DNA of 64,000 bases from an uncultured Acidimicrobiaceae bacterium (GTDB lineage: Bacteria; Actinomycetota; Acidimicrobiia; Spongiisociales; UBA5794). The stretch lies in assembly GCA_964460075.1 (NCBI GenBank), contig CAYWPC010000006.1:8711-72710 (forward strand). The letters run 5' to 3'. Position numbers and translations under genes: made by a program. Shown one piece after another: positions 18,101-64,000 of this stretch; position 1 is the stretch's first letter, and each line of letters starts with the position of its first letter. The notes beneath the pieces are model-generated. The model searched no databases and was not told the DNA's origin. It saw nothing but the letters and a program-made list of their open reading frames with translations.

Positions 18101-18156
18101 GTGTGATTGAACTGTGTCGGTGACGGCGCCGATGCGGTATCTTCGAGGTTTCAGGA

Positions 18157-18230: not shown

Positions 18231-18240
18231 CTACGAACAG

Positions 18241-18273
18241 CTCCCGCGTTTCGCGGGGGCTTGCTCGTTTTCT
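18241..18273 (+). terminator. Intrinsic terminator-like hairpin (CCCGCG-TTT-CGCGGG) plus a T tract
   Basis: Lies immediately after tRNA-Pro and is followed by TTGCTCGTTTTCT. It could also serve the convergent methyltransferase gene. Confidence 0.45.
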
Positions 18274-18396
18274 GGGTCCATCATCAGATATCCGGCCGCG
18301 ATCGCTCATCTGCAGAGGGCACCGCGATCGTCGGTAGCGACCCCACAGAGCGTCACGCACGGCCTGGTTACCTACTCGATCACGATCGATGCTGCG

Positions 18397-19635: not shown

Positions 19636-19666
19636 ATGCCGAACCCGAGTACCCTATGGCGACCAA

Positions 19667-19737
19667 GCGGGTGTAGCTCAATGGCAGAGCCCCAGCCTTC
19701 CAAGCTGGTCACGCGGGTTCGACTCCCGTCACCCGCT
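19667..19737 (+). tRNA. tRNA-Gly (anticodon TCC)
   Basis: Acceptor stem GCGGGTG/CACCCGC; anticodon loop CTTCCAA; T-arm GGTTCGACTCC. Confidence 0.85.
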
Positions 19738-19767
19738 CGACCGGTGGAACAGAACGCCACCGGCCTA

Positions 19768-19841
19768 GCCCCCGTAGCTCAATGGGATAGAGCGACGGAC
19801 TTCTAATCCGTAGGTTGCACGTTCGAGTCGTGCCGGGGGTG
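19768..19841 (+). tRNA. tRNA-Arg (anticodon TCT)
   Basis: Acceptor stem GCCCCCG/CGGGGGT; anticodon loop CTTCTAA; T-arm GGTTCGAGTCG. Confidence 0.8.
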
Positions 19842-19863
19842 CGGCGGGTTCGCCCGCTGACAT

Positions 19864-19942
19864 GGTGGCCGTAGCTCAGCTCGGTTAGAGCGCCTGGTTG
19901 TGGTCCAGGAAGTCGCGGGTTCAAATCCCGTCGGCCACCCCA
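19864..19942 (+). tRNA. tRNA-His (anticodon GTG), with encoded G-1 and CCA
   Basis: G-1 plus GTGGCCG...CGGCCAC-C-CCA; anticodon loop TTGTGGT; T-arm GGTTCAAATCC. Confidence 0.85.
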
Positions 19943-46457: not shown

Positions 46458-46531
46458 GGGGCTGTAGCTCAGCCTGGCAGAGCACTTGACTGGCAGTCAA
46501 GGGGTCAGGGGTTCGAATCCCCTCAGCTCCA
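46458..46531 (+). tRNA. tRNA-Ala (anticodon GGC). Integration target.
   Basis: Acceptor stem GGGGCTG/CAGCTCC with G3-U70; anticodon loop CTGGCAG; T-arm GGTTCGAATCC. Confidence 0.85.
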
Positions 46532-46556
46532 CGGGAGAGAGAAACGCTGGAACCCT
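46496..46556 (+). repeat. attL-like direct repeat (3' half of tRNA-Ala plus ~25 nt)
   Basis: GTCAAGGGGTCAGGGGTTCGAATCCCCTCAGCTCCACGGGAGAGAGAAACGCTGGAACC recurs at 49371-49430 with about 5 mismatches. Confidence 0.8.
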
Positions 46557-46558
46557 AG

Positions 46559-47460
46559 CCATGGCTGGGGTTTCGGCGCGTCTGGAGGTGATTCGTCGGG
46601 TCGTTCTCAAGGTCGTGTTCGGGTCGAGAGTCCGCGAGGAGTCCGCGGGTCCGCTGGAAGTCTGTGTCGAGGAGGTGGGGAGAGATCGCGCGTCAGGGTG
46701 AGGCGCCGATCGGATCGAGACTCGTCGTAAGGATCCGGCGTTCCAGACCAGGATCCGGTCGATCATCGAACAGAACCAGCGGGTGCTCGAGCGGCTCGCT
46801 GAGTGAGCGTCGCGTACCTCGACCTCGCCGACTTCCCTGTGACCGTCGAGTCCGGAGCGAGACCCGGTACCCAGGGTTCGATTGCACGTGTACGTGCAAT
46901 GTGGCCCACAGATCGGTGCTGCGGGTTGGCGGGTGGTGTTGGTGTACCGGTAGCGTGGCGTTCTTGTCGGGTGCAAGTCTCCATCCGCTGAACGCCCATT
47001 GAAGAACCGTCGTAGTGCTTCGGCCTCTCTCGATGGTGCTTTGGTTGCGCCAACCCCGAAGTGCAGTCACTCGATTCGCGCCGTATCCATTGGATAGGCG
47101 GTCTCCGTTGCACTCCACGCCCATGGGCGTTGTCAAGCCACACGATCGTCTTGCCGCGAGTAACTGGTTGGACGAGGACGCTCACATCGCTCTTACCAAG
47201 ATCGGACGAAGGCTTCGCCCGTCACCACCACTTATCGGTTCAGTCAATCGGCGAGCAAGGCGCGATTGCCGTGGATGCGGCTTCGTGGCTGTCGTCACAC
47301 GATGGCGTCGATAACACTCCAGCATGGAGTCGGTATAGCGACGGTGTCTGAGCGGCTGGGACACGCCGACCTGAACATCACGGTGAAGATCTATCTGAAC
47401 GGATCAGGGGAATCAGATCGCTCCGCCACAGAAACACACGATGCGGCACTCCACAGGTGA
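46559..47460 (+). pseudogene. Tyrosine recombinase (phage-type integrase) remnant, frameshifted
   Basis: Box-II-like LRHTMASITLQHGVGIATVSERLGHADLNITVKIY in one frame at 47266-47460. A box-I-like RLRPSPPLIG lies in another frame. No single intact ORF. The 5' limit is uncertain. Confidence 0.55.
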
Positions 47461-47586
47461 CGGCCGGACGCCTCCCACGGAGGAAACGAAGGGCCAGATC
47501 TATGGGTCGATACGGGCAGGTAGAACCCACTTGGGACTCTTTTAGATTGATGCGGGTGAACGAGAATCACCCGGGATTGATTGTGT

Positions 47587-47721
47587 TCAGTGACCGAACG
47601 TGTTGTCGAGAGACTGGTTGGTGTGCGACGCCTTCTTGGCCTTCTTGGCAAGACGTTTTTCCTTGAGGGTCTTCTCAGCAACCTTCCTTGAACCCTTGCC
47701 ACCCTTGTCCTTGTTCGCCAT
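47587..47721 (-). CDS. Unannotated 44-aa Lys-rich basic protein (MANKDKGGKGSRKVAEKTLKEKRLAKKAKKASHTNQSLDNTFGH)
   Basis: Not in the ORF track (below 60 aa). A strong RBS AGGAGG sits 6 nt before the ATG. Inside the integrated element. Confidence 0.5.
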   Translation of the reverse strand: MANKDKGGKGSRKVAEKTLKEKRLAKKAKKASHTNQSLDNTFGH

Positions 47722-47978
47722 CGGAGCCTCCTGACTGATGACCGGAGTGGTAACCATGGAACCAGTGTCTCACATCACGACAAACCGCGGAGCGAACGCG
47801 TCCCTAACAAGCCCAAACATATGCGTTGTTATGGGTGGGTGTGGACGATATAGATCTGGAGGATGGCGCACGGTGGGGTGGGCGTTACCAGAGTGCAGTA
47901 CGCTGCGAGTGGTGAAACGGGAACATCTAGGTATTGGAGTCTGGCGTGGAAGCTGATCGGGAGAGAGCAGAACGCCAT

Positions 47979-48119
47979 GAGCGGGAGCGTAAGGAAGAAC
48001 ACGAGCGCAGTGAGCAGAGACGTAAGGAAGATCGTGAGCGGGCTGACCAAAGGCGTAAGGAAGAGCGTGAGCGGGCTGACCGTAGGCGTAAGGAAGAGCG
48101 TGAGCGGGAGGGTCATGGT
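47979..48119. repeat. Tandem repeat, 4 x 33 bp (unit ..CGTAAGGAAGAGCGTGAGCGGGCTGACC..)
   Basis: The CGTAAGGAAG phase recurs at 47988, 48021, 48054 and 48087. The period of 33 nt is frame-preserving. The plus frame encodes an RRKEERERAD-type charged repeat. Confidence 0.8.
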
Positions 48120-48206
48120 CGGAGCGGGAGTTAGCTTCGGCTGATCGGTTCCTCACTTCGGCGGGGGGCGCTTCTTGTTTGGCGACATGTACTTGGAGGA
48201 TTCCTG

Positions 48207-48347
48207 ATGAAGTCCAAGCCGATTATCGATGGTGGAAGGCAGCGGTGCGTGGATTGTGGCCACCCTCGCAGGGAGCACAGTGATAATCACAGGTGCACAG
48301 TGCCGAAGTGTGAGTGTCTCGAATACCAATTGCCAGAGGCGAACTGA
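48207..48347 (+). CDS. Unannotated 46-aa zinc-ribbon protein (CxxC...CxxxxCxC)
   Basis: MKSKPIIDGGRQRCVDCGHPRREHSDNHRCTVPKCECLEYQLPEAN. A GGAGGA RBS lies 7 nt upstream. Below the ORF-track size cut-off. Confidence 0.5.
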   Translation: MKSKPIIDGGRQRCVDCGHPRREHSDNHRCTVPKCECLEYQLPEAN

Positions 48348-48462
48348 ACTCTGGACCTGGCTCGCTGAGGCCAGTCTTAACCGGTGACCGGTGTGGTTCG
48401 CCCGGCTTGGCCTGGTCGCTCATAGGTGTCGTTATGGGCGAGCTCCGCAAGAAGGCTTGCTA

Positions 48463-48978
48463 CTAGGAAACGGCGGTCGTCACCGTTACACCAGTCTCCT
48501 CACTGGTTGCATGGCGCCACGAGTCTCCGTTCCATTGGAATTGAACAACAATGAATCGGGCACCATCTCGTGCCGTCACGACCCCTATCGGGACGCCCAC
48601 CACATTGGATGCAAGCTCCTCAATCGGACCTACGTAGAGGATGACACCGTCACTCTCCACCACGCCATCGACAAACAGAGCATCATCTTCGGCAGGGCTG
48701 ACGAACATCGCATTGGGGAATTTGGCTACAACCTCGTTGCGAACCTGCTCAGGCATTGGGAGTTCCTGACCTTCGGGCGTGTCCGAGGTGATGAGTTGCT
48801 TGCGTACGAACATTGGGCGAGCTTGACAATCAGGGCAACCGATTTCGACAGCGTTGACCGACGATGTTGCTCGGGTCGCTCCATCGATTGCCGAAGCCTC
48901 GCTACCCGACCCAGTACAAGCCGCTACAAGGACCGACAAGGCTACGACCGCTGCCAGAATGTGTCGACTCCTCAACAT
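48463..48978 (-). CDS. Hypothetical lipoprotein
   Basis: Signal peptide plus lipobox LVAAC|TGSG. Preferred over the overlapping plus-strand ORF 48391-48990. Confidence 0.5.
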   Translation of the reverse strand: MLRSRHILAAVVALSVLVAACTGSGSEASAIDGATRATSSVNAVEIGCPDCQARPMFVRKQLITSDTPEGQELPMPEQVRNEVVAKFPNAMFVSPAEDDALFVDGVVESDGVILYVGPIEELASNVVGVPIGVVTARDGARFIVVQFQWNGDSWRHATSEETGVTVTTAVS

Positions 48979-49370
48979 ACTGTCTTCTAACGTCGCTGAT
49001 TGGTTTCGTCGTTCGGACGCTCATGCACACTGATCGGTTCCCTCAGCCTACGGCAGCATGCGTGATTCCGACTAGCCCGGCCGCCCAGGTCCGGCAATGT
49101 GGGCGAGTTACGCTTACGGACGTGACCACATGGGTGCCAGCTCGAATGTAGCGCCGAATTCGATGACTCAAGGCTTGCGGGAGTGGTGATCGATATCGTC
49201 GGGCCATGGGTTGTGTGTTCATGGTCGAGACCCCGCTGAGCGCCTTCGGGGTATCTATCCGCAGCAACGGCTCCGTGCGCGCAATGCGCCAAGGGCTATC
49301 GTGCGTGACACGTGTAGGGCTTTGAAACTCTTGCACCGCAAGGGCTATAGAAGACGCGATGTGTCCGGTG

Positions 49371-49430
<60 letters not shown>

Positions 49431-49854
49431 CAGCTTCGAATTTGGAGTCTCGGCTCGCCTGAAGGCGACTCCTGTCTAGCCCTTGAACCCGCCTGGGTCA
49501 TGCCTACCGGCGATGAGGATGGGGACGCGGGTGCAGAGACCGTCGGTGTCATAGTGCAGTGGCGAACTGGTTGCGAAGTGTCTCTGGTCCGATTCGCACC
49601 AGCGCGAAGGTGTCTGTCTGAACACGACAGTCTCCGACGGGAATGGTCCGAGTAGCGCCTTACCGCCTACCACATCGCACGGTGCCAGAGCGCCGTTTCA
49701 TGTGTACCCGAGTAGTCCGTTGGGTGGATTCTGCACCGCACCGACTCGAGTTGGCGGCTGCCGCTCAGATCCGCTGGGGTTTGCTTGACGGCACCATCTG
49801 GTGCGCTCTGGCACGGATGGTGGACGCGGTGTACTGTCGACAACAGGAGGAGCC

Positions 49855-50688
49855 ATGGATGATGTAGACGGTAGGGTCGCTGTGGTTACGGGTGCTGCTG
49901 GGGGGATCGGGCTAGGAATGGCTCACGCTTTTGCTGACGCGGGGATGAGCCTCGTGCTCGCTGACATCGACGAAGAGAGGCTCACGGATGCTGTGAACAG
50001 CGTTCAAGCGACCGGAGCCACAGTCATAGGGGTACCGACCGATGTAGCTGATCGGGCAGCTGTCGATTCGTTGGCGGCCGCGACGCTTGAACGATTCGGG
50101 GCAGCACATTTGATCTGCAACAACGCAGGCTTGCCGCTGCCGAGATCCTTGACACAGGTCACGCCCGACGATTGGGAGCGAGGGCTAGGTGTCAACTTGT
50201 TCGGCGTGGTCAACGGAATCCAGGCCTTTATGCCGATCCTCGAGCAGCAAGGTGTGGGACACATCAATGCAACGTCGTCGATGAGCGGCCTCGTAGGGAT
50301 TCCGCCCGTCGTCGTGTACAGCGTCGCAAAATTCGGTGTTATCGCTGTGATGGAGACACTCGCTCGGGAGCTACGTCAGAGCCACTCACCGATCGAGGTG
50401 TCAGTGTTCTGTCCCGGCGAGGTCGCCACGCACGCGATCGACAACGCCATGCACAATGCGTGCGTGTCAGGGCTTGTGCCTTCGCCAGAAGAGCTAGAAG
50501 CGGTCAAAGCTGCGCAAGCAGATCTTCTGAGATCTGGTATTAGCCCTGAAGTTGCCGGCCAGATTGTGCTCGACGGTGTGAGGCAGGGGCGTTTCTGGAT
50601 TTTCAGCCACCCGCAATGGGTCGAAGGACCGGTCCGGTCGCGCTTCGAGGCCATGGCGGGGGACGGAAGTCTGCCCAATCTGTTCTAG
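49855..50688 (+). CDS. SDR family oxidoreductase
   Basis: TGAAGGIG Rossmann motif and the YSVAK (YxxxK) catalytic motif. AGGAGG RBS. Confidence 0.8.
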   Translation: MDDVDGRVAVVTGAAGGIGLGMAHAFADAGMSLVLADIDEERLTDAVNSVQATGATVIGVPTDVADRAAVDSLAAATLERFGAAHLICNNAGLPLPRSLTQVTPDDWERGLGVNLFGVVNGIQAFMPILEQQGVGHINATSSMSGLVGIPPVVVYSVAKFGVIAVMETLARELRQSHSPIEVSVFCPGEVATHAIDNAMHNACVSGLVPSPEELEAVKAAQADLLRSGISPEVAGQIVLDGVRQGRFWIFSHPQWVEGPVRSRFEAMAGDGSLPNLF

Positions 50689-50709
50689 CGACCACAGCGG
50701 ACGAGCGGT

Positions 50710-52221
50710 TTAGTCGTCTTCGAGTTCGTAGATTCTGTCGATGTAGCGGGTGATCAGTTCCTTCACAGCGGTGCGCGACGGGAAGGTCGCCGCCATCCCG
50801 TACATCGGTGCAGCACCGGTCACGGCCTCACCGCCAGCCGCTCGAGCCTGTGTAACTGCATCGGTGAGATCAGCGAGGAATCGATCGGCAACACCCGGCT
50901 TCGTGTGGCGCAGGGTCACAGCGATGTGCACGGCAGGCGGGTGGTGCAGCCCGTTGAGACTCCACCCCCGCTCGGCCATCCTCGCCATGACCTCATAGAC
51001 GTCTACGTCATCCGATCCAAAGGCGATGACCCACAGCGGATCGCCGAGTACGTGCAACCCTTCGATGTCCCCGATACCGTCTCTGATCTGGGCACCGGTC
51101 GTGAGGATTGCCTCCGTTGCACGCAGATAGCCGTCTTCTCCCATTGAAACCAGGGCGGCCCAGGCGGCAGCGAGAAGGCCTCCTGGGCGGCTTCCCGCAA
51201 GCGTCGGGGAGTAGTAGAGCCCGCCAGGCCATTCGGTAGCAACATGAAACTGGTTCCTGCGAAGGTCCCTTCCGCGGTACAGGACAACAGAAGTCCCTTT
51301 GGCCGCATATCCGTACTTGTGTGTGTCGGCAGACATCGAAGTGACACCTGGCAGTCGGAAATCGAACGGGGCGATGTCATAGCCGAGCCGTTCAGCCCAC
51401 GGCAGCACGAAGCCGCCAAGGCACGCGTCCGTGTGAAATGCAACGCCGCGCTCTCGGGCCATATCGGAGAGTTCAGCAATGGGGTCGATGACACCGTGTG
51501 GGAAGCCAGGTGAGGAACCGGCTACGACAATGGTTCGCCTCGTCATCGCCCTTGCCATCGCATCGACGTCGGCACGAAAATCTCCTCCGACGGGGACACG
51601 CACCTGATCGTATCCGAAATACGCAGCTGCCTTGTCGAAGGCAACGTGGGCTGAGTCTGGCAGCACCATCTGAGGCTTCGAGACGTGAGCGCGGTCCCGA
51701 TACGCCTTCATTGCCATGATGATCGACTCGGTACCCCCCGATGTCACTGTGCCTACGATCTCGTCCCCAGCTTGGGCGGCGACCCGTGCGCCGAGCATCC
51801 CGGCTGTCATGGCAACGACCTCCGCCTCGAACTTCATTCCAGACGGCCACACATCGAGGTGGAGTGGATTCGACTGAGACTGGAGCGCATAGACCCTATT
51901 GAGGAAATCGATGTGTTCGCCGTCGCCGTGATAGACAGCTCCAGAGGCGTAGCCGTCGTTCCAGTCGCCCCTTTCTGCCTCAGCAAGGGCTGAGACGTTG
52001 GCGATGATCTCGTCTCGTGGACGGCCGGTCGCCGGCAGCCGCGAATACACGGGGACGTCGACCTCAGGCCGCACGACAGGCGTGGCGTCGAGCATCGTTT
52101 CATACTCGGCTTCGAGCATCGCGCGAATCTTCGGGACCCTCCCTGCACCGCCTATGAGGGCTGAGGCGACACGACGCGGGAGTTTGTCTATGACTTTCTT
52201 GGCTCGCTCGCTGATGCTCAT
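50710..52221 (-). CDS. PLP-dependent group II decarboxylase family protein (glutamate decarboxylase / sphingosine-1-phosphate-lyase-like)
   Basis: [10 protein letters not shown] and [10 protein letters not shown] (PLP-Lys) motifs. Start chosen at MSISERAKK. Confidence 0.65.
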
Positions 52222-52228
52222 CTGTCTC

Positions 52229-53783
52229 TCATGTGTTGATGCGGCGGTAGATGCCGCGGTTGGCCTTGTGGATCCTGCGGAATGTGTCGTATCGGCTGTC
52301 GTACACGTCTCGATTCGCCGGATTCGGTGAGCGCGAGGCGGCGGTGGGAGCGGTCTCATCGATGTCCTCCCAGGTGATGTGGCCGAGCGCAGCGTGCGCC
52401 AGCATTCCCGCACCCCGCACATTCACCCAGAGCGGCTCGCCGCGTTGGAGGATCGTACGCCCGAGTACATCGGCGTGGATCTGGGCCCATAGGTCCGACT
52501 GGGCGCCACCACCAACCATCGAGATCGGATCCAGGCGTCGCTTCGTGAACCGCTCGACTGTCTCGAGCAGCCAGCGTGTGTTGAACGCGACGCCCTCGAA
52601 TACGGCACGGATCATCGCGTCGCGGCCCGTGTCGAGAGACTGATTGAAGAACCCGCCTCGCAGGCTCGCATCCTCGATGGGTGTGCGTTCGCCGTAGAGC
52701 CACGGCGTGAAGATGACACCGTTGGATCCAGGAGGAACGCCCGCAGCAGCCAGATTGAGATCCGCGTACACCGATTCGTCTCTGCGACGGTCGGGGTAGA
52801 GGATCGACGCGAACCAGTCGATCGCTTTCCCCGCGGTCTCCTGCTCGTTGGCGACGAACCATCGGCCAGGCACGGCAGCTGGGAGGGAAGCTACCGAATG
52901 CAGCAGGTCGGTTTTCTTGTAGGGCACGTGGCAGGTCAGCCACGACGACGTGCCGATGTAGAGATGCGCTGCATAGTCCGCAACGGTTCCTGCTCCAATG
53001 GCTGCAGATGAAACGTCGGGTGTTCCCGCAATGACCGGTGTGCCAGGCGTGAGGCCCAACGCATCGGCTGCTGTCTTCGTGAGGCCACCGATCACTTCGG
53101 TTGCGTGGGCCAACTCGGGGAGTCGGTCGCGGCTCAGGTCCGCATAGCCGAGGAGCGTGTCGTCGTAGGTTACGGAGTCGGGATCTCGGTTGTTGGTGAC
53201 CCAGTGCAGGGCGATCGAGTCGTACGAGGCGACCGCTCTGCCGGTAAGGCGGAGGTTCAGATAGTCCTTCGGTTCGAGGAACTTGTCAGCAGCGAGGTAG
53301 ATGTCGGGTCGTTCGTGTCGCAGGAAGAGAATGTGAGCGATTGGGTCCTTGCCAGAGCCCGATGGTGCGCCACCGGTCGTGTGTATCCATCGACGAATCC
53401 GGAGTGGACCGAAGCCCTCGACTCTGAGAGGTCCAGCCGCTGTGAGACCGTCTAGATACGGCGCACCACGGGAATCCATCCAGATGACCGCATTGCCGAT
53501 CGGTTCTCCGTGCCGATCGACGGCTACGGTGCCTGACCACTGCGACGTGACTGACACCGAGGAAATCTCGATGTGAGTCGATGAGGCGATCGTTCGCCGT
53601 GTCGCCGCTACGATCGCATCCCACCAGGCGTGTGGGTCCTGTTCCGCTCCGCCGTGGCCGTCGAGGAGGAGGTCGACGGATTCGGTAGCCCCTCCAAGGA
53701 TCTCGCCACGATCCGATACGATTGCCACTTTCGGCCCAGATGTGCCGAGGTCGATAGCGAGGACGTGCGTCGGAGGTTCCACG
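52229..53783 (-). CDS. FGGY family carbohydrate kinase
   Basis: N-terminus [15 protein letters not shown]; actin-like ATPase fold. Start approximate (GTG chosen). Confidence 0.65.
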
Positions 53784-53888: not shown

Positions 53889-56333
53889 CTAGGGGGACCA
53901 CCAGAGGCCAACGCCGAGGGTTATCGCGGTGATCAATACGCCAATGACTGTCCAGAAGTACACGGTGTGGCCATCGATACGGATAGAGAGCAGGTTCGCG
54001 CCGCTGGTCGTGTACGCAGCGTCTCGTCCAACCTCTCGCGTGTTGCTCGAACCCTGTCTGTGACTGTCTTGTGTGATGGACTCGTATCGGGTGTTGAGCG
54101 ACTCTCGTCGTATGAGTTGGCCGCCGAACGAGTTGGCCAGAACTGCGGTGACAGACGAGATCATGGCGATCATCGCCCACACCGGGCTGATGAGCCCTGT
54201 GACTGCTGCGAAAACTCCGATGCCGTTGAAGCTGAACGCGAGTACGAGGTTCTGCTTAGTTTTGCGGTACGAGGAGATACCGATCTCATGGGCATCCATC
54301 ACGGATCCAAGCCGGTCGCTCATGATGACGATGTCGGCGGATTCGATAGCGATGTCCGTACCGGCACCGATAGCGACACCGATGTCGGCCTGGGTGAGCG
54401 CCGGGGCGTCGTTGATACCGTCGCCGACCATCATGACGCGTGAACCGTGGCGTTGCAGCCTCCGGATCTCAGCGGCTTTCTCGTCGGGGAGTACCTCAGC
54501 GAGCACATCGCCGATCCCCACCATCGCGGCGATCGTGTGTGCGGTGCGTGGGTTGTCGCCGGTGACCATCACAGGGACGATGCCTGCGGACTTGATCCGT
54601 GCAATGGCTGCTGCCGCGTCGTCTTTGACGGTGTCGGCAATTCCGATGAGCCCAACGAGGATTCCGTCGCGGGACACTGCAATGACAGTTTCGCCCTGCT
54701 CTTCGAGCTTTCGCCTGTTGGTGTCGAGTGGCGACAGGTCGATGCCCTGTTCGACCAACCAATTCGGTTTGCCGACGAGCACGCGGGCCCCGTCGAGATT
54801 GGCCTCGACCCCGCGTCCCGTGTGCGACTCGAACGTGCCGGCTTCGACGAGGGACAGCTTTCGTGACTCGGCTGCGTCTTCCACCGCACGGGCGAGGGGA
54901 TGCTCGCTGTTCATCTCGGCTGCGGCTGCAACAGCAAGCAGAACATCGGCCGACACGTCGCCGGTTGTGACTACCGTCTGGACGGTCGGCTCGCCCCTGG
55001 TGATCGTGCCGGTCTTGTCGAACACCACAGTGGTGACGTCCCCCATGACCTGGAACGCCTCGCCTGAGCGCATCAAGATCCCCCGCTGGGCGGCTTCGCC
55101 CCCACCTCGGATAGTGGCCAACGGTGTTGCCATGCCCAACGCACACGGGTACCCCATGACGAGTGTTGCGAGTCCTGCTAGGAGCGCACGGTTCCAATTC
55201 GGACCGTCCCCGAGAAGTGTCGGCGCAATGGTCCACAGCAGAAATCCGCTGGCGGCGAAGACGAGCACGGTGGGCGCGAAGTAGCGAAGCACGACATCGA
55301 CGACCTGGAGCACGCCGGGCCTGAGGCTTCGAGCTTCATCGATCGACCGGGCGATTTGGGACAGAAATGCGTCGTCGCCGATGCGGGTCACCTCGACGAC
55401 TAGCGTGCCGGTCTGGTTGATCGACCCTCCGATCACGTCGTCACCGGACACCTTCTCTGCAGGGATCGACTCGCCGGTCACGAGCGCCTCATTCACCGCA
55501 GACACACCATCGACGACAGTTCCGTCCACCGGGATCGACTCGCCCGGCCGGATACGGACCAGGTCTCCTGAAAGGACATCGTCGATCGGTGTGTCGACCT
55601 CCTTGCCATCGCGCACCACGCGGGCCGTGTCCGGGCGTAGATCCATCAGCCGTCGCACGGCCTGGGACGACCGGGTACGCACAACGAGCGACGAATAGTG
55701 GGACAAGATGTGATAGGTGGTCACGAGGGTTGCTGCCGCGAAGAAGTCACCGACGGGAAAGTTGTCCAAGACGAACAAGCCGAGGAAGCCTCCGGCAATC
55801 CCTGCGAACGCCGCAGACTCCAACAGCACATGCTGATTGAGTATGCCTCGCCGCAGTGACGCCCATGCCATCTTCTTGATGAACCAGCCGGTGAGGAACA
55901 TCGTGTTCAACGCGAATGCCAACAACAGCCACGGCATCAGGGGGACAGCAACGATGTCGAGCCACTGCCCGACGAGCATCAGGAGCAGGCTCGCCACTGT
56001 GAGGCTGCCTGCAACGACGAGCCGGCCTCGTTCCCGTCGAAGCTCCGCCGCGTCGTCGTCGAAGCTCCGCAGTTTCTCAGGATCTCTGTAGGTGTAGCCC
56101 ATTTCCTCGAGGGTCCGTCGCAGCTTCTCCGGCGTCACCTTGGATGGGTCATACCTGACCAGGCCCTCCTCGTGGGCAAGCGACACACCCACCTCGTGCA
56201 CTCCGTCGATTCGTCCGTAGGCCTTGTCGATCGTCGATGTACAGAACGAGCAGGACATGCCACCAATTTTCATCCGGAACGTAGCTTGACCCGCTTGAGC
56301 AGTCGCATTCGCTGCTGCATTGTCGCTCGCCAT
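53889..56333 (-). CDS. Heavy-metal translocating P1B-type ATPase (probably copper)
   Basis: N-terminal HMA domain GMSCSFC. DKTGTIT phosphorylation site and GDGINDAP. The TM6 motif is YPC rather than the canonical CPC. Confidence 0.85.
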   Translation of the reverse strand: MASDNAAANATAQAGQATFRMKIGGMSCSFCTSTIDKAYGRIDGVHEVGVSLAHEEGLVRYDPSKVTPEKLRRTLEEMGYTYRDPEKLRSFDDDAAELRRERGRLVVAGSLTVASLLLMLVGQWLDIVAVPLMPWLLLAFALNTMFLTGWFIKKMAWASLRRGILNQHVLLESAAFAGIAGGFLGLFVLDNFPVGDFFAAATLVTTYHILSHYSSLVVRTRSSQAVRRLMDLRPDTARVVRDGKEVDTPIDDVLSGDLVRIRPGESIPVDGTVVDGVSAVNEALVTGESIPAEKVSGDDVIGGSINQTGTLVVEVTRIGDDAFLSQIARSIDEARSLRPGVLQVVDVVLRYFAPTVLVFAASGFLLWTIAPTLLGDGPNWNRALLAGLATLVMGYPCALGMATPLATIRGGGEAAQRGILMRSGEAFQVMGDVTTVVFDKTGTITRGEPTVQTVVTTGDVSADVLLAVAAAAEMNSEHPLARAVEDAAESRKLSLVEAGTFESHTGRGVEANLDGARVLVGKPNWLVEQGIDLSPLDTNRRKLEEQGETVIAVSRDGILVGLIGIADTVKDDAAAAIARIKSAGIVPVMVTGDNPRTAHTIAAMVGIGDVLAEVLPDEKAAEIRRLQRHGSRVMMVGDGINDAPALTQADIGVAIGAGTDIAIESADIVIMSDRLGSVMDAHEIGISSYRKTKQNLVLAFSFNGIGVFAAVTGLISPVWAMIAMISSVTAVLANSFGGQLIRRESLNTRYESITQDSHRQGSSNTREVGRDAAYTTSGANLLSIRIDGHTVYFWTVIGVLITAITLGVGLWWSP

Positions 56334-57314: not shown

Positions 57315-57629
57315 CACCATTCCCGAAGATTCGCGGCTCGATGCGATACCCAAGGCACGTCCGTCTTCCGATGGCAGACCACACCGTCGAAATCGGATAC
57401 AGAGACGGTTGCGGCCTCGTGGCGATTAGGTCTTGCCAGCCCGTGGCTCTACCGCATGCCTCAGTGACAGCTACATCTTCGAGTCAGGTGGTGGCATGAT
57501 CGGACCCGGCGGCGCTTGGCGCGTGCCGAACTCGTCGGATGACCGGAATGCGGCATCCAATGCCGGAAGTTTGATCACTGGCGTCGATAGGCGGCGTGTA
57601 CTGCGCAACGCGCTCCTAGCCTCGGCACC

Positions 57630-58142
57630 ATGGTCGAACTCTACGACTTCATCACCGACGTCCCCGACTTCCCAGAGCCGGGCATCATATTCAAAGACAT
57701 CACGCCACTGCTTGCGGACCCAGCGGCCTTCCTGCAGGCCGTCGACGAGATGGCAGACCCGTTCAACGCCTCCAGTGTCGACATCGTTGTCGGTATTGAG
57801 TCTCGCGGTTTTCTCCTCGCCGGATCAATAGCCGAGCGCATCGGATCTGGTGTAGGGCTTGTTCGCAAACCGGGCAAGCTGCCGAGAAAGACCGTTTCGG
57901 TGACCTATGAACTCGAATACGGTACAGACTCGCTCGAGATCCACGAAGATGCCTTTCCAAACGGAGCTCGCGTCCTGATCGTCGATGACGTGCTAGCAAC
58001 CGGTGGAACGCTGGCTGCGACGAGCGATCTCATCGCGAAGGCAGGAGGCGTTGTCGTCGGAGCGACAATGCTCATAGAGCTCACCTTTCTCGATGGCCGC
58101 TCAAGGTTCGACGGCCCCCTCCACGCCGTGTTGGCTTACTGA
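57630..58142 (+). CDS. apt: Adenine phosphoribosyltransferase
   Basis: PRPP-binding motif VLIVDDVLATGGT. Confidence 0.9.
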   Translation: MVELYDFITDVPDFPEPGIIFKDITPLLADPAAFLQAVDEMADPFNASSVDIVVGIESRGFLLAGSIAERIGSGVGLVRKPGKLPRKTVSVTYELEYGTDSLEIHEDAFPNGARVLIVDDVLATGGTLAATSDLIAKAGGVVVGATMLIELTFLDGRSRFDGPLHAVLAY

Positions 58143-58209
58143 TCCAGTTTTCGGCGAGGCGACGCACGCCATAACCTCGGCGAAGACGCCTCGAGGGTAC
58201 GATTCGGGC

Positions 58210-59715
58210 ATGGTGCTAGACAGACTCACGTCACTCGAACCGGGCATGCCGATCGTATGGGGAGGATCTCGCATTGCTCGTGTCTCTGAGGCTTTGGCCG
58301 CTGCCTTCTCTTCGGGGGACGCGTTGATCGTTCGACAGGACACAGGCGAGCTGATCCACATTCCCGCCACAGCAACGCAGATCGCAGCCGAAGCAGTGAG
58401 GAGAGCTCATCAGGCCTTTGATTCGATGGGTTCCGTCGGTGATGATCAGATCACCGACTTTTACAACCGATTCGCCGACGCACTCGATGATGACCAACGA
58501 TTCGGCCCAATTGCGGCAGCGAACGAGGTCGATGTCGCTGCCGCTCAGCAGGCTGGCCGATCCGCGACAAGGCTGATACTCGACGCCGAGATGCGCTCCG
58601 GCATGGTCGCTGGACTTCGTGGCTGGGCAGCAGCGCCGAGCGGTCGTAGGCGTACGCTCGAAACGGTTGAGCACGACGGGTGGCGTGTGGAGCAGATCGC
58701 GGATGGCCTCGGGGTGATCGGATTCGTGTTCGAGGGGAGGCCCAACGTGTTTGCCGATGCCACAGGTGTACTCCGCAGTGGCAACACGGTCGTGTTCAGA
58801 ATCGGTTCGGATGCACTTGGAACTGCACGCGCAATCGTCGAAGCCGCGCTGGATCCCTCACTTTCGGCCTCAGGACTGCCTCCGGGCGCGGCAACGCTCG
58901 TTCCGAGCCGATCAAGAGAGACTGGGCTTGCAATGATGAACGATCCACGGTTGGCGCTGGCCGTTGCAAGAGGTTCTGGCCCTGCGACTGAACGTCTAGG
59001 AGCTGTTGCACGTCAGGCCGGCAACGCAGTCAGTCTGCACGGTACGGGCGGTGCGTGGATCATCGCCGGACTCGGCGCAGATCCACAAGATCTTGCCGCC
59101 GCGGTGTATCACTCGCTTGATCGCAAGGTCTGCAACACGCTCAACACTGCCTGTATCCCTCGAAGCGTTGCCCATGCCCTCGTTCCGGCATTCCTCGAGG
59201 CGATCGAGCGAGCTGGCGAGAGAAGATATGCCAACACGAAGCTCCATGTTCTCGAGTCGAGCCTCGACGCTATCCCTTCTGAATGGTTTGATCGCCACGT
59301 TCCAATCTCGAGGGCGGGAGGTCCCGTCGTTGAGCCACAAGCCGAGGCGATCAAGGAGGCCTTCCTCGGTCAAGAGTGGGAGTGGGAGGACAGCCCAGAG
59401 GTAACACTGGCATTGGTCGACTCGGTCAGACAGGCTGCAGATTGGTTCAACCAGTACAGTCCACGATTCGTCGTCTCGCTCATTTCTGACGACCAATCCG
59501 AACAGGACCGCTTTTTCGGAGACGTCGATGCCCCCTTCGTCGGAAACGGGTTCACTCGGTGGGTTGACGGTCAATACGCGCTCGACAAGCCTGAGCTTGG
59601 ACTGTCTAACTGGCAAAGGGGGCGCCTATTCGGAAGAGGCGGAATTCTGTCAGGTGACTCTGCATACACCGTGCGAACCCGCGTCACGCAGAGCGATCCC
59701 GACATCGGCCGTTGA
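58210..59715 (+). CDS. proA: Gamma-glutamyl phosphate reductase-like aldehyde dehydrogenase (ProA-like, elongated)
   Basis: ProA-like VIGFVFEGRPNV and the catalytic Cys context RKVCNTLNT. About 500 aa, longer than typical ProA. Start uncertain. Confidence 0.6.
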   Translation: MVLDRLTSLEPGMPIVWGGSRIARVSEALAAAFSSGDALIVRQDTGELIHIPATATQIAAEAVRRAHQAFDSMGSVGDDQITDFYNRFADALDDDQRFGPIAAANEVDVAAAQQAGRSATRLILDAEMRSGMVAGLRGWAAAPSGRRRTLETVEHDGWRVEQIADGLGVIGFVFEGRPNVFADATGVLRSGNTVVFRIGSDALGTARAIVEAALDPSLSASGLPPGAATLVPSRSRETGLAMMNDPRLALAVARGSGPATERLGAVARQAGNAVSLHGTGGAWIIAGLGADPQDLAAAVYHSLDRKVCNTLNTACIPRSVAHALVPAFLEAIERAGERRYANTKLHVLESSLDAIPSEWFDRHVPISRAGGPVVEPQAEAIKEAFLGQEWEWEDSPEVTLALVDSVRQAADWFNQYSPRFVVSLISDDQSEQDRFFGDVDAPFVGNGFTRWVDGQYALDKPELGLSNWQRGRLFGRGGILSGDSAYTVRTRVTQSDPDIGR

Positions 59716-59772
59716 CGTCGAATCGGCCATTCTTCGTAAGCGCACTACGCTTGCGTGTCCGCAAGGAGATGT

Positions 59773-62508
59773 ATGGCGTCGTACGACTTTCGTGAGATAG
59801 AAGACCGTTGGCAGAGCATCTGGGCCGACCAGGGGACCTACCGCGTCGCGAACCCAGGCGACCCTGATTTCGATAGTACGAAGCCGAAGAAGTACATCCT
59901 CGACATGTTCCCGTATCCCTCCGGTGCAGGACTGCACGTAGGCCATCCGCTCGGATACATCGGAACCGACATCTACTCGCGCTACCACCGAATGTGTGGC
60001 GCCAATGTCCTTCACCCCATGGGTTTCGACGCGTTCGGCCTACCCGCTGAGCAGTACGCCGTGGAGACGGGGATTCATCCACGCGTCACGACAGACAAGA
60101 ACCTCAAGAACTACACGCGGCAATTGAAGGCGTTCGGATTCTCCTACGACTGGGACCGGTCTCTCGCCACGACCGATCCGGGGTACTACAGGTGGACACA
60201 GTGGATATTTCTCCAACTGTTCGAATCCTGGTTCGATGTGCACAGGCAGAAGGCACGTCCCATCGCCGAACTTGTTGCAGACCTCGAGGACGGATTGAGA
60301 GATGCCGACGGCGTTGCGTGGAGGAATCTCCCACCGGAAGACCGTCTCTCCTATCTCGATAGCCAGCGTTTGGCCTATATCGATGAAGTTCCCGTTAACT
60401 GGTGCCCTGCGCTCGGTACGGTCCTCGCCAACGAAGAGGTCACACCCGAAGGTCGATCTGAACGTGGCAACCACCCCGTTTACCAGCGCCCACTTCGGCA
60501 GTGGATGCTCCGCATCACTGCGTACGCCGATCGTCTCATCGACGAATTGGACCTCGTTGACTGGCCAGAGTCCGTCAAGACGATGCAACGCAACTGGATT
60601 GGGCGTTCGGAGGGCGCACACATCGTGTTCCCCATCGAAGGCCACACCCAGATACGGGTCTTCACGACCAGGCCAGACACCGTCTTCGGAGCGACCTACA
60701 TGGTCTTGGCACCCGAACTTCCCATCGTTGACGAAATCACAGCCGAGCAGTGGCCAGACGGCACGAAACCGAAGTGGACCCTTGGAATCGACGACCCCAA
60801 AACAGCCGTCGAGGCCTACCGGCTTGCCGCATCTCGAAAGTCTGAACTTGAGAGGCAGATCGAGGACAGAGAAAAGACTGGTGTCTTCACCGGTGCCTAT
60901 GCAACCAATCCGCTCACTGGCGACCTCATCCCGATATTCGTCGCGGACTATGTGCTCATGGGGTATGGAACCGGTGCCATCATGGCGGTCCCTGGTCAGG
61001 ACGAGAGGGACTGGGAATTCGCGGACGTCTTCGACCTACCGATCGTGCGAACCGTTCAGCCGCCAGTGGAGTTCGATGGCGACGCATACACAGGAGAAGG
61101 TCCAGCGATCAATTCGGGCTTCCTCGACGGTCTCGATGTCGACGCAGCGAAGATTCGGATCATCCAGTGGCTTGAGTCGAACGGCCACGGGGAAGGCACG
61201 ATCACGTACAAGTTACGCGACTGGCTTTTCTCCAGGCAGCGCTACTGGGGCGAGCCCATCCCGATTCTCCATGGACCCAATGGTGAGCTGCTGGCTGTAC
61301 CAGACGAGGACCTCCCGCTTCGGCTCCCAGAGGTCGACGATTACCGACCGCACGCATCGAACGACGAGGACGCCGAACCGACGCCTGCGCTGGCGAACGC
61401 GCCCGATAGTTGGAAACACGTTGAGATCGACGGCGTTGCCTATACGCGAGAGCTCAACACGATGCCCCAGTGGGCTGGCTCGTGCTGGTACTACCTTCGC
61501 TACCTCGACCCACACAATGAGGAGGTACTGGTTGCACCGACAGCCGAGGAGTACTGGATGGGTGACCAAGGTGTTGACCTCTACGTTGGAGGTGTCGAAC
61601 ACGCCGTCTTGCACCTGTTGTACTCCCGGTTCTGGCACAAGGTGCTCAATGATCTTGGCCATGTGTCGACGAGGGAGCCGTTCGGTCGGTTGTTCAACCA
61701 GGGATACATCCTCGCTGACGCATTCCAGGACGATCGCGGCGTGTATGTGCATGCAGATGAGGTCCTCGGTGAAGGCGAATCCTTCACGCACAACGGCGAA
61801 CCTGTCTCGCGTGTGTATGGAAAGATGGGAAAGTCACTGAAGAACTCGGTCAATCCCGATGACATCTTCGAGGAATACGGCGTCGACACACTCCGACTCT
61901 ACGAGATGTTCATGGGTCCGCTCGACGCATCACGTCCATGGTCGACCCGCGACATCGTTGGTGTGCACCGGTTCCTTCAACGTCTGTGGCGCGCATTCAT
62001 TGACGAAGACACGGACACCGTGTTGGTCTCGGACGATCCCGCAGAAGGTGAACTCCTGATTCTTCTGCATCGAACGATCGAGGCTGTCACAGATGACATG
62101 GAGAACCTGCACTTCAACACGGCAGTCGCTCGGCTGTTCGAACTCAACAACGCGCTCGTCGCTGAGCCGAGCGTTCCTGCGGACGTAGCAGACGTGCTTC
62201 CGAGACTGCTGGCCCCACTCGCTCCCCACATCAGTGAGGAGCTGTGGCACCGAATGGGCAAGAGCGGATCTGTCGTTGACGCGCCATGGCCTACGTTTGA
62301 TGCAGCGATCATCGCTGAGGACACGGCAACGATGGTTGTTCAGGTGAACGGAAAGGTCCGCGACCGCATCGGAGTTCCCGTGCACATCTCGGAGAAGGAA
62401 GCATTGCTGCTTGCGTTGGCGTCCGAGCGCGTCCTTGCGCACACCGGGGGAGCGGATCCTCGCAAGGTCATCGCGAGGCTGCCCAACGTGCTGAGCATCG
62501 TAGTGTGA
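59773..62508 (+). CDS. leuS: Leucine--tRNA ligase
   Basis: HVGH and KMGKS motifs; CP1 editing domain. AAGGAG RBS. Confidence 0.95.
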   Translation: MASYDFREIEDRWQSIWADQGTYRVANPGDPDFDSTKPKKYILDMFPYPSGAGLHVGHPLGYIGTDIYSRYHRMCGANVLHPMGFDAFGLPAEQYAVETGIHPRVTTDKNLKNYTRQLKAFGFSYDWDRSLATTDPGYYRWTQWIFLQLFESWFDVHRQKARPIAELVADLEDGLRDADGVAWRNLPPEDRLSYLDSQRLAYIDEVPVNWCPALGTVLANEEVTPEGRSERGNHPVYQRPLRQWMLRITAYADRLIDELDLVDWPESVKTMQRNWIGRSEGAHIVFPIEGHTQIRVFTTRPDTVFGATYMVLAPELPIVDEITAEQWPDGTKPKWTLGIDDPKTAVEAYRLAASRKSELERQIEDREKTGVFTGAYATNPLTGDLIPIFVADYVLMGYGTGAIMAVPGQDERDWEFADVFDLPIVRTVQPPVEFDGDAYTGEGPAINSGFLDGLDVDAAKIRIIQWLESNGHGEGTITYKLRDWLFSRQRYWGEPIPILHGPNGELLAVPDEDLPLRLPEVDDYRPHASNDEDAEPTPALANAPDSWKHVEIDGVAYTRELNTMPQWAGSCWYYLRYLDPHNEEVLVAPTAEEYWMGDQGVDLYVGGVEHAVLHLLYSRFWHKVLNDLGHVSTREPFGRLFNQGYILADAFQDDRGVYVHADEVLGEGESFTHNGEPVSRVYGKMGKSLKNSVNPDDIFEEYGVDTLRLYEMFMGPLDASRPWSTRDIVGVHRFLQRLWRAFIDEDTDTVLVSDDPAEGELLILLHRTIEAVTDDMENLHFNTAVARLFELNNALVAEPSVPADVADVLPRLLAPLAPHISEELWHRMGKSGSVVDAPWPTFDAAIIAEDTATMVVQVNGKVRDRIGVPVHISEKEALLLALASERVLAHTGGADPRKVIARLPNVLSIVV

Positions 62509-62897
62509 GCATTCCCGCCGAGATCGCGGTCGTTCGTGCTGGCCTCGATGCCACGTCCCTCGATGCTCAAGGTGTCCGACTCGTTGCTATGCCGTGGATG
62601 GCCAGCGTTGCTTTCGGACGCAGCGTGCAGGCGATAACGCTCAACCGAACGATCTTCATCCAGCCGTCAATGTACGATCGAGTCGCGTCTGGCGTCGAAC
62701 CGTCGCTGCTGGTGCACGAGCTGATACATGTGGCACAGTGGCGTGACCAGGGCATTGTTGGGTTCACGTTCCAATACGTGGCTCAATACGCTCGGCTTCG
62801 GTTGCTCGGTGTCGGCCATGATGCTGCGTATCGAGGAGTCAGCTTCGAGTATGCAGCATTCGACGCGGCGAAGCGCTCACGGAGATACGCGGCGTGA
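62505..62897 (+). CDS. DUF4157-type putative zinc metallopeptidase domain protein (HExxH)
   Basis: LLVHELIHVAQW, the DUF4157 hallmark. Stand-alone, 130 aa. GTGA overlap with leuS. Confidence 0.55.
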   Translation: MSIPAEIAVVRAGLDATSLDAQGVRLVAMPWMASVAFGRSVQAITLNRTIFIQPSMYDRVASGVEPSLLVHELIHVAQWRDQGIVGFTFQYVAQYARLRLLGVGHDAAYRGVSFEYAAFDAAKRSRRYAA

Positions 62898-63685
62898 CGC
62901 AGGTGCCGCCTCCACCGCCAGGGTATCTTCCCGTGTCCAAGTGGCGATTGTGGGACTTCGTCACGGTGTTCTTCGCGGGTATCGGCGGATCGATCGTGGC
63001 CACCGTCGTCGTGGTTGGAGTTGGTGCAGATCCTCTCGATCCGCTTCCGTTCTCCCTGGTTTTCCTGACGCAGGCCGCGGCGAGTTTCTGGGTAGTGGTA
63101 GTGCTCTCGAGACGGAGAGGGTCAGGATCGCTCGCGGCCGATGTCGGCCTGATCGTTCGACCTGGCCACTGGTGGGGAGTCGTCGTCGGTATGGGCCTCC
63201 AAGTCGCGATCTCGCTCATCACTGCGCCGTTCATCCTGTGGATGTTCCCTGACGGCCCCCCACAACAAGGTGTGTCCGAGATCGCTGGACAGTCCGACAC
63301 CGTCGTCGATCAACTCGCGGTATTTGTAGCAATCGCTGTTGTAGCGCCGATCATCGAGGAGATCATCTTCCGTGGAATCTTGCTGTCGGTGCTCGACAGG
63401 GTGATGGCGAAGTGGCCAGCAATCCTCGTATCTGCCGCGGTGTTCGCGTCGGTTCACCTCCTCGATCCAAACGCGATTGCGGTGATTCCCGGCCTCTTCC
63501 TCGTGGGTATCGCCCTTGCATGGGCTGCGCTGCGCACTGGTGATCTCTCACTCCCCATAGCACTCCACAGCGGCATCAATCTCCTTGCTGCGATCAGTAT
63601 CTTGTATGGGACCGAGCTGCTGAACTGGTCCGAACAGCAGCTTCAACAGATGCAAGGCATCATCAGATTCGTCTGGTTCTTCTGA
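62894..63685 (+). CDS. CPBP family (CAAX/Abi) intramembrane metalloprotease
   Basis: EEIIFRG (EExxxR) and FASVHLL (FxxxH) motifs. Multi-TM. GTGA overlap with the upstream gene. Confidence 0.75.
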   Translation: MTQVPPPPPGYLPVSKWRLWDFVTVFFAGIGGSIVATVVVVGVGADPLDPLPFSLVFLTQAAASFWVVVVLSRRRGSGSLAADVGLIVRPGHWWGVVVGMGLQVAISLITAPFILWMFPDGPPQQGVSEIAGQSDTVVDQLAVFVAIAVVAPIIEEIIFRGILLSVLDRVMAKWPAILVSAAVFASVHLLDPNAIAVIPGLFLVGIALAWAALRTGDLSLPIALHSGINLLAAISILYGTELLNWSEQQLQQMQGIIRFVWFF

Positions 63686-63828
63686 ACTGGCTCTCTTCGA
63701 TGTCTCAGGAACTAGGATCAGCGCACGATTTCGACTCGGCGGTGCCGTCGACGGGAGCCCAAGATATTCCCTTCGATGGTGCTGATGGCTACCAATGTTG
63801 ACCCAACCGTGCTTGTGAGGGGCGTACC

Positions 63829-64000
63829 GTGACATCTCGAGAACACCACTGGGAGCGCGTGTACCAAGACCGCGGGCCGATCAATGTGTCGTGGTATCAG
63901 GAGCACGCTTCCCGATCCTTGGATTTGATCGCGGCTACAAGGGTCGATCTGGACGCCTCGATCATCGATATCGGCGGTGGAGCATCGCCGTTGGTGGATG
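63829..64000 (+). CDS. Probable SAM-dependent methyltransferase, 3'-truncated by the window edge
   Basis: N-terminal HWERVYQ...VSWYQ...IIDIGGGAS (motif I). GTG start. Not in the ORF track. Confidence 0.45.
   Translation, partial: MTSREHHWERVYQDRGPINVSWYQEHASRSLDLIAATRVDLDASIIDIGGGASPLVD

Follow-up and report, generated by a model that had tools for sequence, protein, structure and literature searches.

Two small genes that overlap behind leuS, the gene for leucyl-tRNA synthetase, in an uncultured Acidimicrobiaceae bacterium probably belong to a housekeeping operon that has been inherited vertically, rather than to a conflict module. The first gene encodes a small zincin of the DUF4157 superfamily and the second a membrane protease of the CPBP family. 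The zincin is distributed far more widely than its CPBP neighbor, which accompanies it in one clade (clade A, to which the present locus belongs).

Gene organization of the locus

The window, that is, the whole stretch of DNA that was analyzed, is 64,000 nucleotides long. The features that make up the locus are the following.

59755..62508, plus strand: leuS, leucyl-tRNA synthetase, with Pfam domains tRNA-synt_1_2, tRNA-synt_1 and Anticodon_1
62505..62508, plus strand: GTGA, in which the GTG start of the zincin gene overlaps the TGA stop of leuS
62505..62897, plus strand: zincin gene, 130 aa, GTG start; putative stand-alone minimal gluzincin of the DUF4157/eCIS_core superfamily, predicted cytoplasmic
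62881..62885, plus strand: GGAGA, a Shine-Dalgarno-like site read from the sequence, 8 nt 5' of the CPBP start
62894..62897, plus strand: GTGA, in which the GTG start of the CPBP gene overlaps the TGA stop of the zincin gene
62894..63685, plus strand: CPBP gene, 263 aa, GTG start; Rce1-like glutamic intramembrane protease with 7 predicted TM segments
63829..64000, plus strand: 5' part of a SAM-methyltransferase-like gene (IDIGGGAS read by eye in the translation); the window ends inside the gene

The true start of leuS is probably at 59773 rather than 59755, because the gene was called as 911 aa on the contig from which the window comes. Judged by their homologues, the two genes that follow are genuine genes rather than chance ORFs: the 31 close homologues of the zincin are nearly all 130 aa long and share 26 invariant columns, and the CPBP protein has 180 homologues at E<=1e-10. 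The GC3 of the zincin-CPBP locus is native, and its neighborhood is ordinary core chromosome. A scan of positions 57500-64000 found no promoters or terminators, and an Rfam search of the whole window returned tRNAs only.

The first-pass annotation had described a 130-aa DUF4157 protein overlapping the leuS stop, a CPBP protease whose start overlaps the stop of that protein and whose EExxxR and FxxxH motifs are intact, and a SAM-methyltransferase gene behind them. The first two descriptions agree with the two GTGA overlaps and with the Pfam score and the motifs given below. The methyltransferase-like ORF does follow, from 63829 on, but it is no part of the conserved unit. It is seen downstream in this window only, and in the closest relative (L032) comEA comes directly after the CPBP gene with no methyltransferase between them.

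The small zincin

The zincin scored 26.5 bits against PF13699 (eCIS_core, formerly DUF4157; cutoff 22, E 7.5e-6) in Pfam, which is a small margin. The scores of two relatives lie on both sides of the cutoff, at 18.1 for the distant homologue L013 and 27.5 for L019. Residues 68-79 of the zincin are LLVHELIHVAQW and contain the first of three conserved features.

62715..62729, plus strand: HELIH (residues 71-75), predicted zinc-binding/catalytic motif with H71, E72 and H75; invariant in all family groups
62817..62849, plus strand: C-terminal conserved block H105-x3-Y109-x5-E115; H105, Y109 and E115 invariant family-wide
62847..62849, plus strand: codon of E115, the proposed third zinc ligand

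E115 sits 40 residues past H75, at the start of a predicted helix that spans residues 113-129. For VgrG2b, a distance of 44 residues separates H939 from E983, the third ligand there, which occupies the top of helix alpha5 (PMC6899460). From the spacing and the helix position we infer that E115 may serve as the third zinc ligand. An aspzincin-type third ligand at D106 was also considered and was ruled out, since D106 is variable outside clade A.

The best fold match of the zincin is the C-terminal metallopeptidase of VgrG2b, and other matches are BlaR1 and M1, M32 and thermolysin-like enzymes. A PDB sequence search with the zincin family profile gave nothing significant (best E 0.14). The combination of an HExxH motif, a downstream invariant Glu on the following helix and a zincin fold is that of the gluzincins (clan MA(E)). 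Neither a signal peptide nor a TM segment was found in the protein, with a maximum 19-aa hydropathy of 1.17. Read from its sequence, the protein is a soluble minimal gluzincin and a putative peptidase. A T7SS-type YxxxD/E export motif at Y116-D120 was ruled out by eye, as it is unconserved across the zincin family.

The CPBP membrane protease

The second protein scored 75.2 bits against PF02517 (Rce1-like; cutoff 22.4) in Pfam and has the multi-pass character of the Rce1 fold. It reached none of the NCBIfam equivalog cutoffs and so is assigned to none of the named subfamilies (MroQ, Mrt, LnsB, Rv0804). Its conserved elements are listed below.

62906..62932, plus strand: proline-rich N-terminal tail PPPPPGYLP, predicted cytoplasmic, before TM1; L12, P13 and W17 invariant in 39 homologues
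63356..63373, plus strand: motif 1, EEIIFR (residues 155-160); E155, E156 and R160 invariant in 39 homologues
63443..63457, plus strand: motif 2, FASVH (residues 184-188; F184, H188); invariant in 39 homologues
63566..63580, plus strand: motif 3, HSGIN (residues 225-229; H225, N229); invariant in 39 homologues

A motif search found all three motifs in 26 clade-A ORFs as well. The two proteins had been called a pair of metalloproteases. That label fits the small zincin only, because current classification, as reflected in the NCBIfam names, places CPBP/Rce1 proteins among the glutamic intramembrane proteases.

Distribution and neighborhood of the zincin family

The zincin family comprises 735 stand-alone proteins at E<=1e-5; a threshold of E<=1e-3 gives 1,332 representative clusters. 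Its members are stand-alone proteins, mostly of about 100-150 aa, and are labeled Acidimicrobiia wherever names exist. Among the best 150 of the 1,332 representatives, 148 are <=205 aa (nearly all 60-205 aa). Of the two longer proteins in this set, one is a DUF4157 protein of 295 aa and the other an RHS-repeat protein with the domain at its C-terminal tip.

The genomic context was surveyed in 109 non-redundant loci, mostly metagenome contigs, sampled via the pattern HEL[IV]HVxQW (at most 80 matches taken). The conserved position of the family is between leuS and comEA-comEC-holA. The leuS gene lies directly upstream of the zincin in 56 of the 90 informative loci sampled, and the zincin overlaps the leuS stop or starts within about 30 nt of it. 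Among the 64 sampled loci that are informative on both sides, 39 have both leuS and comEA, 2 leuS only, 6 comEA only and 17 neither. Some lineages are without leuS, and there the zincin heads the comEA/comEC operon. Group D has no leuS. Outside clade A, the zincin has comEA or a convergent PPK2 gene directly behind it; the latter is the intervening gene in group B. The named flanks at family loci are holA, PPK2 and apt. It has been considered that the function of the zincin is tied to these conserved neighbors and not to CPBP, as a LeuRS-linked factor or a factor in ComEA/ComEC DNA uptake. We regard this as doubtful.

A CPBP gene comes next after the zincin in 23 of 76 informative sampled loci, all of them in clade A. 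No CPBP or CPBP-like ORF was found within about 5 kb in any of the 53 informative sampled loci outside clade A, and an HMM search together with a motif search ruled out hidden divergent CPBPs in those loci. In the tree, the CPBP-linked zincins are monophyletic (24/24 tips), and their sister groups are lineages with the order leuS-zincin-comEA. The confinement of CPBP to one monophyletic clade (23/23 versus 0/53 elsewhere) points to a single gain. The co-occurrence of the two genes, which the first-pass annotation had named among the points to check, is complete in the informative loci of clade A and does not extend to the other informative loci sampled.

Within clade A, the zincin-CPBP adjacency and the overlapping junction are kept in every one of the 23 loci that extend far enough downstream. 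The zincin, CPBP and LeuS co-diverge in this clade (Mantel r 0.82-0.85; 0/2000 permutations), with mean pairwise identities of 0.46, 0.60 and 0.81, respectively. The identity between zincins falls to 36% within the clade, yet the overlap with CPBP is kept throughout.

Stop/start overlaps and the relation between the two genes

The overlap between leuS and the zincin gene is kept in clades A and B as GTGA, ATGA, TGATG or TAATG. That the overlap is conserved through four different sequence solutions fits termination-reinitiation. The plausibility of a ribosome-binding site had been raised as a check on the zincin ORF. A canonical Shine-Dalgarno sequence is absent upstream of this ORF, which counts in part against it, but the overlap with the leuS stop is conserved in the way just described. 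The overlap between the zincin and CPBP genes occurs as GTGA, ATGA or TGATG in every clade-A locus. Based on the conserved overlaps, both junctions are putatively translationally coupled. An overlap is low-specificity evidence for coupling, however, because the same type is found at 9 of the 36 same-strand junctions in the window (25%), including tig/clpP and obg/proB.

This baseline bears on how the relation between the two genes is to be understood. The zincin and CPBP may be functionally unrelated, with CPBP having landed by chance in an operon that is expressed constitutively, and with genome compaction as the cause of the overlaps. The overlap frequency in the window, the single-gain topology and the independence of the zincin from CPBP elsewhere all favor this account, whereas the retention of CPBP next to the zincin in all 23 loci, deeply diverged as they are, speaks against it. 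We consider it somewhat less than probable as a separate explanation, and it is already largely contained in the housekeeping-operon explanation.

At the other extreme, the two proteins of clade A could constitute an obligate two-protease machine, in which the zincin docks on CPBP, perhaps on the proline-rich N-terminal tail, for sequential processing of one substrate or for regulation of one protease by the other. The strict zincin/CPBP overlap across clade A, which we treat as secondary, could reflect a real partnership of this kind. Against it, the zincin occurs without CPBP in 53/53 informative sampled loci outside clade A, overlaps of the same type are found at a quarter of the same-strand window junctions and also at leuS/zincin, and no fusion of zincin to CPBP is present in the best 150 of the 1,332 representatives. 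An obligate machine is therefore unlikely. A two-protease partnership of a looser kind may exist, and so may the pro-protein-processing pair that the first-pass annotation had offered as its other option.

Discussion

Abi/CPBP proteins are bacteriocin immunity factors in Firmicutes. The first-pass annotation had suggested that the two genes could form a toxin-immunity-like pair, in which the DUF4157 zincin is the toxin and the CPBP/Abi protein guards the producer. The faster evolution of the zincin relative to its neighbors would suit a toxin, and the fold does serve as one in VgrG2b C-ter and Tpe1 (PMC6899460) and at the RHS C-terminal tip. The remaining evidence does not support the suggestion. 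Neither a signal peptide nor a TM segment is evident in the zincin. No eCIS, T6SS or Rhs genes are present in the window (by inspection) or in related loci, and PADLOC finds no match for the zincin or CPBP. All 53 informative sampled loci outside clade A lack an adjacent candidate immunity gene. Inheritance with leuS is strictly vertical, at a fixed chromosomal position. In addition, VgrG2b C-ter is harmless when located in the cytoplasm; the immunity protein that goes with it is a periplasmic protein without relation to CPBP (PMC6899460). The co-divergence, the native composition and the lack of eCIS, T6SS or defense genes nearby make a toxin-immunity pair very unlikely indeed.

Under the housekeeping-operon explanation, the zincin would be co-produced with LeuRS through termination-reinitiation at the GTGA overlap and would act as a small cytoplasmic peptidase whose substrates are endogenous peptides or proteins. 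In clade A the CPBP gene was inserted once between the zincin and comEA, and the stop/start overlap has been retained since. At low confidence, the two proteases of this clade might be made in fixed proportion and might share a membrane-proximal substrate. The ancestral role of the zincin would be independent of CPBP, and CPBP would not be an immunity factor for the zincin.

Few unexplained domains are as common as DUF4157 in the toxin loci of contractile-injection systems and the T6SS. The zincin family is the simplest form of the domain, about 100-130 aa long, stand-alone, predicted cytoplasmic, class-wide and tied to an essential gene, which makes it a tractable model for the role of the domain. 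The locus also carries a caution, in that a DUF4157 gene adjoining an Abi/CPBP gene is by itself no toxin-immunity signature. The interest of the locus is modest and lies in a predicted mini-protease that is uncharacterized, class-wide and leuS-coupled.

Comparison with known systems

VgrG2b C-ter and Tpe1 are T6SS effectors annotated as DUF4157. They are VgrG-fused or secreted, act in the target periplasm and are countered by a small periplasmic immunity protein (PMC6899460). The zincin differs from them in being stand-alone, predicted cytoplasmic and encoded in a leuS operon that lacks a delivery system, and the sequence similarity is insignificant (E 1.3). That same-fold relatives such as VgrG2b C-ter and the RHS tip can be delivered toxins is a consideration that runs counter to a housekeeping view. 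In eCIS cargo, DUF4157 is flanked by a disordered loading sequence on one side and a toxin domain on the other, within eCIS loci (PMC8213781). It is dispensable for loading. [quoted passage not shown]

Rv2189c is a stand-alone actinobacterial DUF4157 protein encoded beside ripC (PMC12067865). Like the zincin, it is an HExxH protein in a conserved actinobacterial housekeeping neighborhood; unlike the zincin, it is larger (about 230-280 aa in the BLAST matches listed), and its neighbor is an NlpC/P60 hydrolase gene. The minigluzincins proabylysin, projannalysin and selecase are archaeal and of a different sequence family (similarity to the zincin E 1.2). They are regulated via C-terminal self-inhibition or oligomer switching.

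CPBP-fold proteins are known to partner other hydrolases, as in SpdC-SagB and LnsB-LnsA, and SpbR-SpsB is probably a further case. SpdC and LnsB are without catalytic residues and their partners are extracytoplasmic, whereas the CPBP protein described here keeps all catalytic motifs and its neighbor is predicted to be cytoplasmic. Should a partnership between the zincin and CPBP be demonstrated, it would add a catalytically active case to the CPBP-fold proteins known to cooperate with another hydrolase.

Among the eukaryotic CAAX proteases, Rce1 is the founder of the CPBP family and Ste24 is a membrane gluzincin. We know of no prenylation system or CAAX substrates in the Acidimicrobiia. An Rce1-type glutamic protease beside an HExxH+E zincin recalls this pairing by analogy only, since Ste24 is a 7-TM M48 enzyme and the zincin a soluble protein of 130 aa. 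One may imagine a class-wide, dedicated housekeeping mini-zincin slaved to LeuRS translation which, in clade A, has CPBP as its partner and the proline-rich N-terminal tail as docking site or substrate. This is a speculative proposal to which we give a low probability. If it were true, the zincin-CPBP machine would represent either a new two-protease processing unit or the bacterial equivalent of the Ste24/Rce1 pairing.

Organization of the leuS-zincin-CPBP locus

Two intact protease genes follow leuS in the window, the first encoding a small zincin with a HELIH motif and the second a membrane protease of the CPBP type.

59755-62508: leuS, ending GTG-TGA
62505-62897 (+): zincin ORF, 130 aa, starting at the GTG within the GTGA of the leuS end
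8 nt upstream of the CPBP start: GGAGA Shine-Dalgarno site
62894-63685 (+): CPBP ORF, 263 aa, its GTG start sharing the TGA stop of the 130-aa ORF
63829-64000 (visible part): methyltransferase-like (SAM) ORF, continuing past the window end

In Pfam, the small protein scored 26.5 bits for PF13699 (eCIS_core, formerly DUF4157), where the cutoff is 22, and its features are those of a DUF4157 superfamily member with a gluzincin layout. The PHROG profile phrog_15610 (105 positions, annotated 'protease') matches the same ORF with an E value of 4.6e-6; thus similar mini-zincins are encoded by phages. The 263-aa protein matched PF02517 (Rce1-like) with 75.2 bits. In NCBIfam it hit CPBP models only, and since every score was below the equivalog cutoff it lies outside every named CPBP subfamily. 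The first-pass annotation was correct on both stop/start overlaps, at 62505 and 62894, and on the intactness of the CPBP motifs EExxxR and FxxxH, present as EEIIFR and FASVH; the third motif, HSGIN, is intact as well. It also placed a methyltransferase gene next. The ORF is indeed there, but in the closest relative, locus L032, comEA lies directly 3' of CPBP with no methyltransferase gene. The gene is therefore a local addition, inserted between CPBP and, presumably, comEA.

The overlap of the leuS stop with the zincin start is kept by differing solutions (GTGA, ATGA, TGATG and TAATG) in clade A, the CPBP-bearing clade of the window, and in clade B, another zincin group; in group C the gap is just ~7-30 nt. 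The zincin/CPBP overlap is found in every clade A locus, also by differing solutions. These conserved overlaps are compatible with termination-reinitiation. The first-pass annotation held that lack of a plausible RBS would count against the zincin ORF; a canonical Shine-Dalgarno sequence is absent before it, but termination-reinitiation would account for the start. Overlap alone is poor evidence that two genes are specific functional partners, because 4-nt or 1-nt stop/start overlaps occur at 9 of the 36 same-strand junctions in the window, including tig/clpP (21434-21437) and obg/proB (41009-41012). Judged by this count, operon packing in the genome is very tight.

A stand-alone zincin family appended to leuS

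The zincin family has many members, the great majority of them stand-alone proteins. With a word-indexed profile search, 735 came up at E<=1e-5; for an exhaustive search, the representative clusters numbered 1,332 at E<=1e-3 and 251 at E<=1e-10. Among the best 150 of the 1,332 representatives, 148 are <=205 aa and none is a zincin-CPBP fusion. Close homologues are nearly all precisely 130 aa, and the reference-genome matches are Acidimicrobiia MAGs. One metagenome protein with RHS repeats (P0388, 1843 aa) carries a mini-zincin relative at its extreme C-terminus (residues 1720-1828), where polymorphic toxins carry the toxin domain.

HMMs trained on sequences gathered in the analysis served to classify 109 non-redundant loci. 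Almost all are metagenome contigs or MAGs, a metagenome scan that used one peptide pattern and was capped at 80 loci added 80 to the sample, and gene starts in newly called ORFs are approximate. The zincin family is conserved, its gene appended to the 3' end of leuS with comEA-comEC-holA downstream: leuS is directly upstream in 56 of the 90 loci with sufficient upstream sequence, and among 64 loci that are informative in both directions, 39 show leuS and comEA, 2 leuS only, 6 comEA only and 17 neither. The order on long contigs is apt, proA-like ALDH, leuS, zincin, CPBP, comEA, comEC, holA. In other Acidimicrobiia, whose LeuRS of ~810 aa shares only 42% identity with that of the window, a 129-131-aa homologue likewise overlaps the leuS stop with no CPBP after it; outside the CPBP cases, any gene between zincin and comEA is a convergent PPK2 kinase gene.

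Zincin-bearing Acidimicrobiia have two LeuRS forms (911-924 aa versus ~806-822 aa, mutual identity ~42%), and both retain the overlap (L013-L015, L044-L049 and L053-L055 versus the window). In four Aldehydirespiratoraceae MAG loci (L018-L021, ~5935-6315), a more distant 122-148-aa homologue does not adjoin leuS and lies ~1.6 kb from cysS. A ~515-aa divergent beta-propeller protein with a threonine run near its N-terminus lies in between, and L020 and L021 have a second, paralogous class-I synthetase-like ORF just upstream of cysS.

A single gain of CPBP and vertical inheritance

CPBP directly follows the zincin in 23 of the 76 loci with sufficient downstream sequence. The co-occurrence that the first-pass annotation proposed to check holds within clade A, where all 23 fall, but not beyond it: neither HMM nor motif found CPBP within ~5 kb in the remaining 53 (0/53). 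In a neighbour-joining tree of 100 zincins, all 24 CPBP-linked zincins fall into a single clade, which contains no informative tip lacking CPBP; the groups sister to it have the arrangement leuS-zincin-comEA. CPBP was thus acquired a single time, in this clade, which has kept it with an overlapping junction; parsimony suggests one insertion between zincin and comEA. Inside the clade, the zincin, CPBP and LeuS diverge in close step (Mantel r 0.82-0.85; 0/2000 permutations), and pairwise identity averages 0.46 for the zincin, 0.60 for CPBP and 0.81 for LeuS. In GC3, the zincin and CPBP genes match the genes around them. The window carries ordinary core-chromosome genes (tig-clpP-clpX, valS, mre/rod genes, obg-proB, nadD, apt), identified by N-terminal sequence and gene order rather than profile searches.

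Elsewhere, six tRNA genes cluster on both strands at 16756-19939, three of them in tandem at 19667-19939. Downstream of a tRNA at 46458-46531, ~46500-53000 holds only short ORFs of low GC3 and could represent an island or decayed sequence; a CopA-like P-type ATPase gene follows at 53889-56333 (minus strand).

The vertical inheritance of the locus bears on the earlier proposal of a toxin-immunity-like pair, with the zincin as toxin and CPBP as immunity factor. Abi/CPBP proteins can serve as immunity factors, which favours it. Toxins also exist among relatives of the zincin fold, namely VgrG2b, Tpe1 (PMC6899460) and the RHS C-terminal tip. However, the zincin has no export signal, no delivery system lies near the locus, PADLOC returned no match on it, and in most lineages the proposed toxin has no adjoining candidate immunity gene. 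Strictly vertical inheritance beside an essential gene and native composition also argue against it, as does VgrG2b itself, whose C-terminal domain is harmless in the cytoplasm and whose immunity protein resides in the periplasm and is no relative of CPBP (PMC6899460). We consider the proposal very improbable.

Proposed function and comparison with known systems

The zincin would be a constitutively made cytoplasmic peptidase, its synthesis tied to LeuRS translation, and CPBP would cleave membrane or membrane-proximal substrates. Alternatively, the zincin may be tied functionally to LeuRS or ComEA/ComEC, a link that synteny alone cannot tell from simple inheritance. In clade A, the two proteases might work on the same substrate or assemble into one complex. 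Such a partnership is hinted at by the conserved, predicted cytoplasmic PPPPGYLP tail of CPBP. Right after the start codon (62906-62932, residues 5-13), five prolines precede GYLP; the clade consensus is PPPP(P)GYLPV.xW, and L12, P13 and W17 are invariant in 39 homologues. The tail might act as a peptide for docking or as a substrate. A five-proline run would need EF-P for translation. The partnership would also have precedents, since CPBP-fold proteins team up with other hydrolases in SagB-SpdC, LnsA-LnsB and, apparently, SpbR-SpsB (PMC12260438).

In a limited literature search, we found no description of the leuS-coupled mini-zincin family or its CPBP pairing. The current name of PF13699 comes from an eCIS and toxin context, whereas the leuS-coupled zincin lacks either association. 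In mycobacteria, too, a stand-alone DUF4157 gene, Rv2189c beside ripC, has been described in a housekeeping neighbourhood (PMC12067865).
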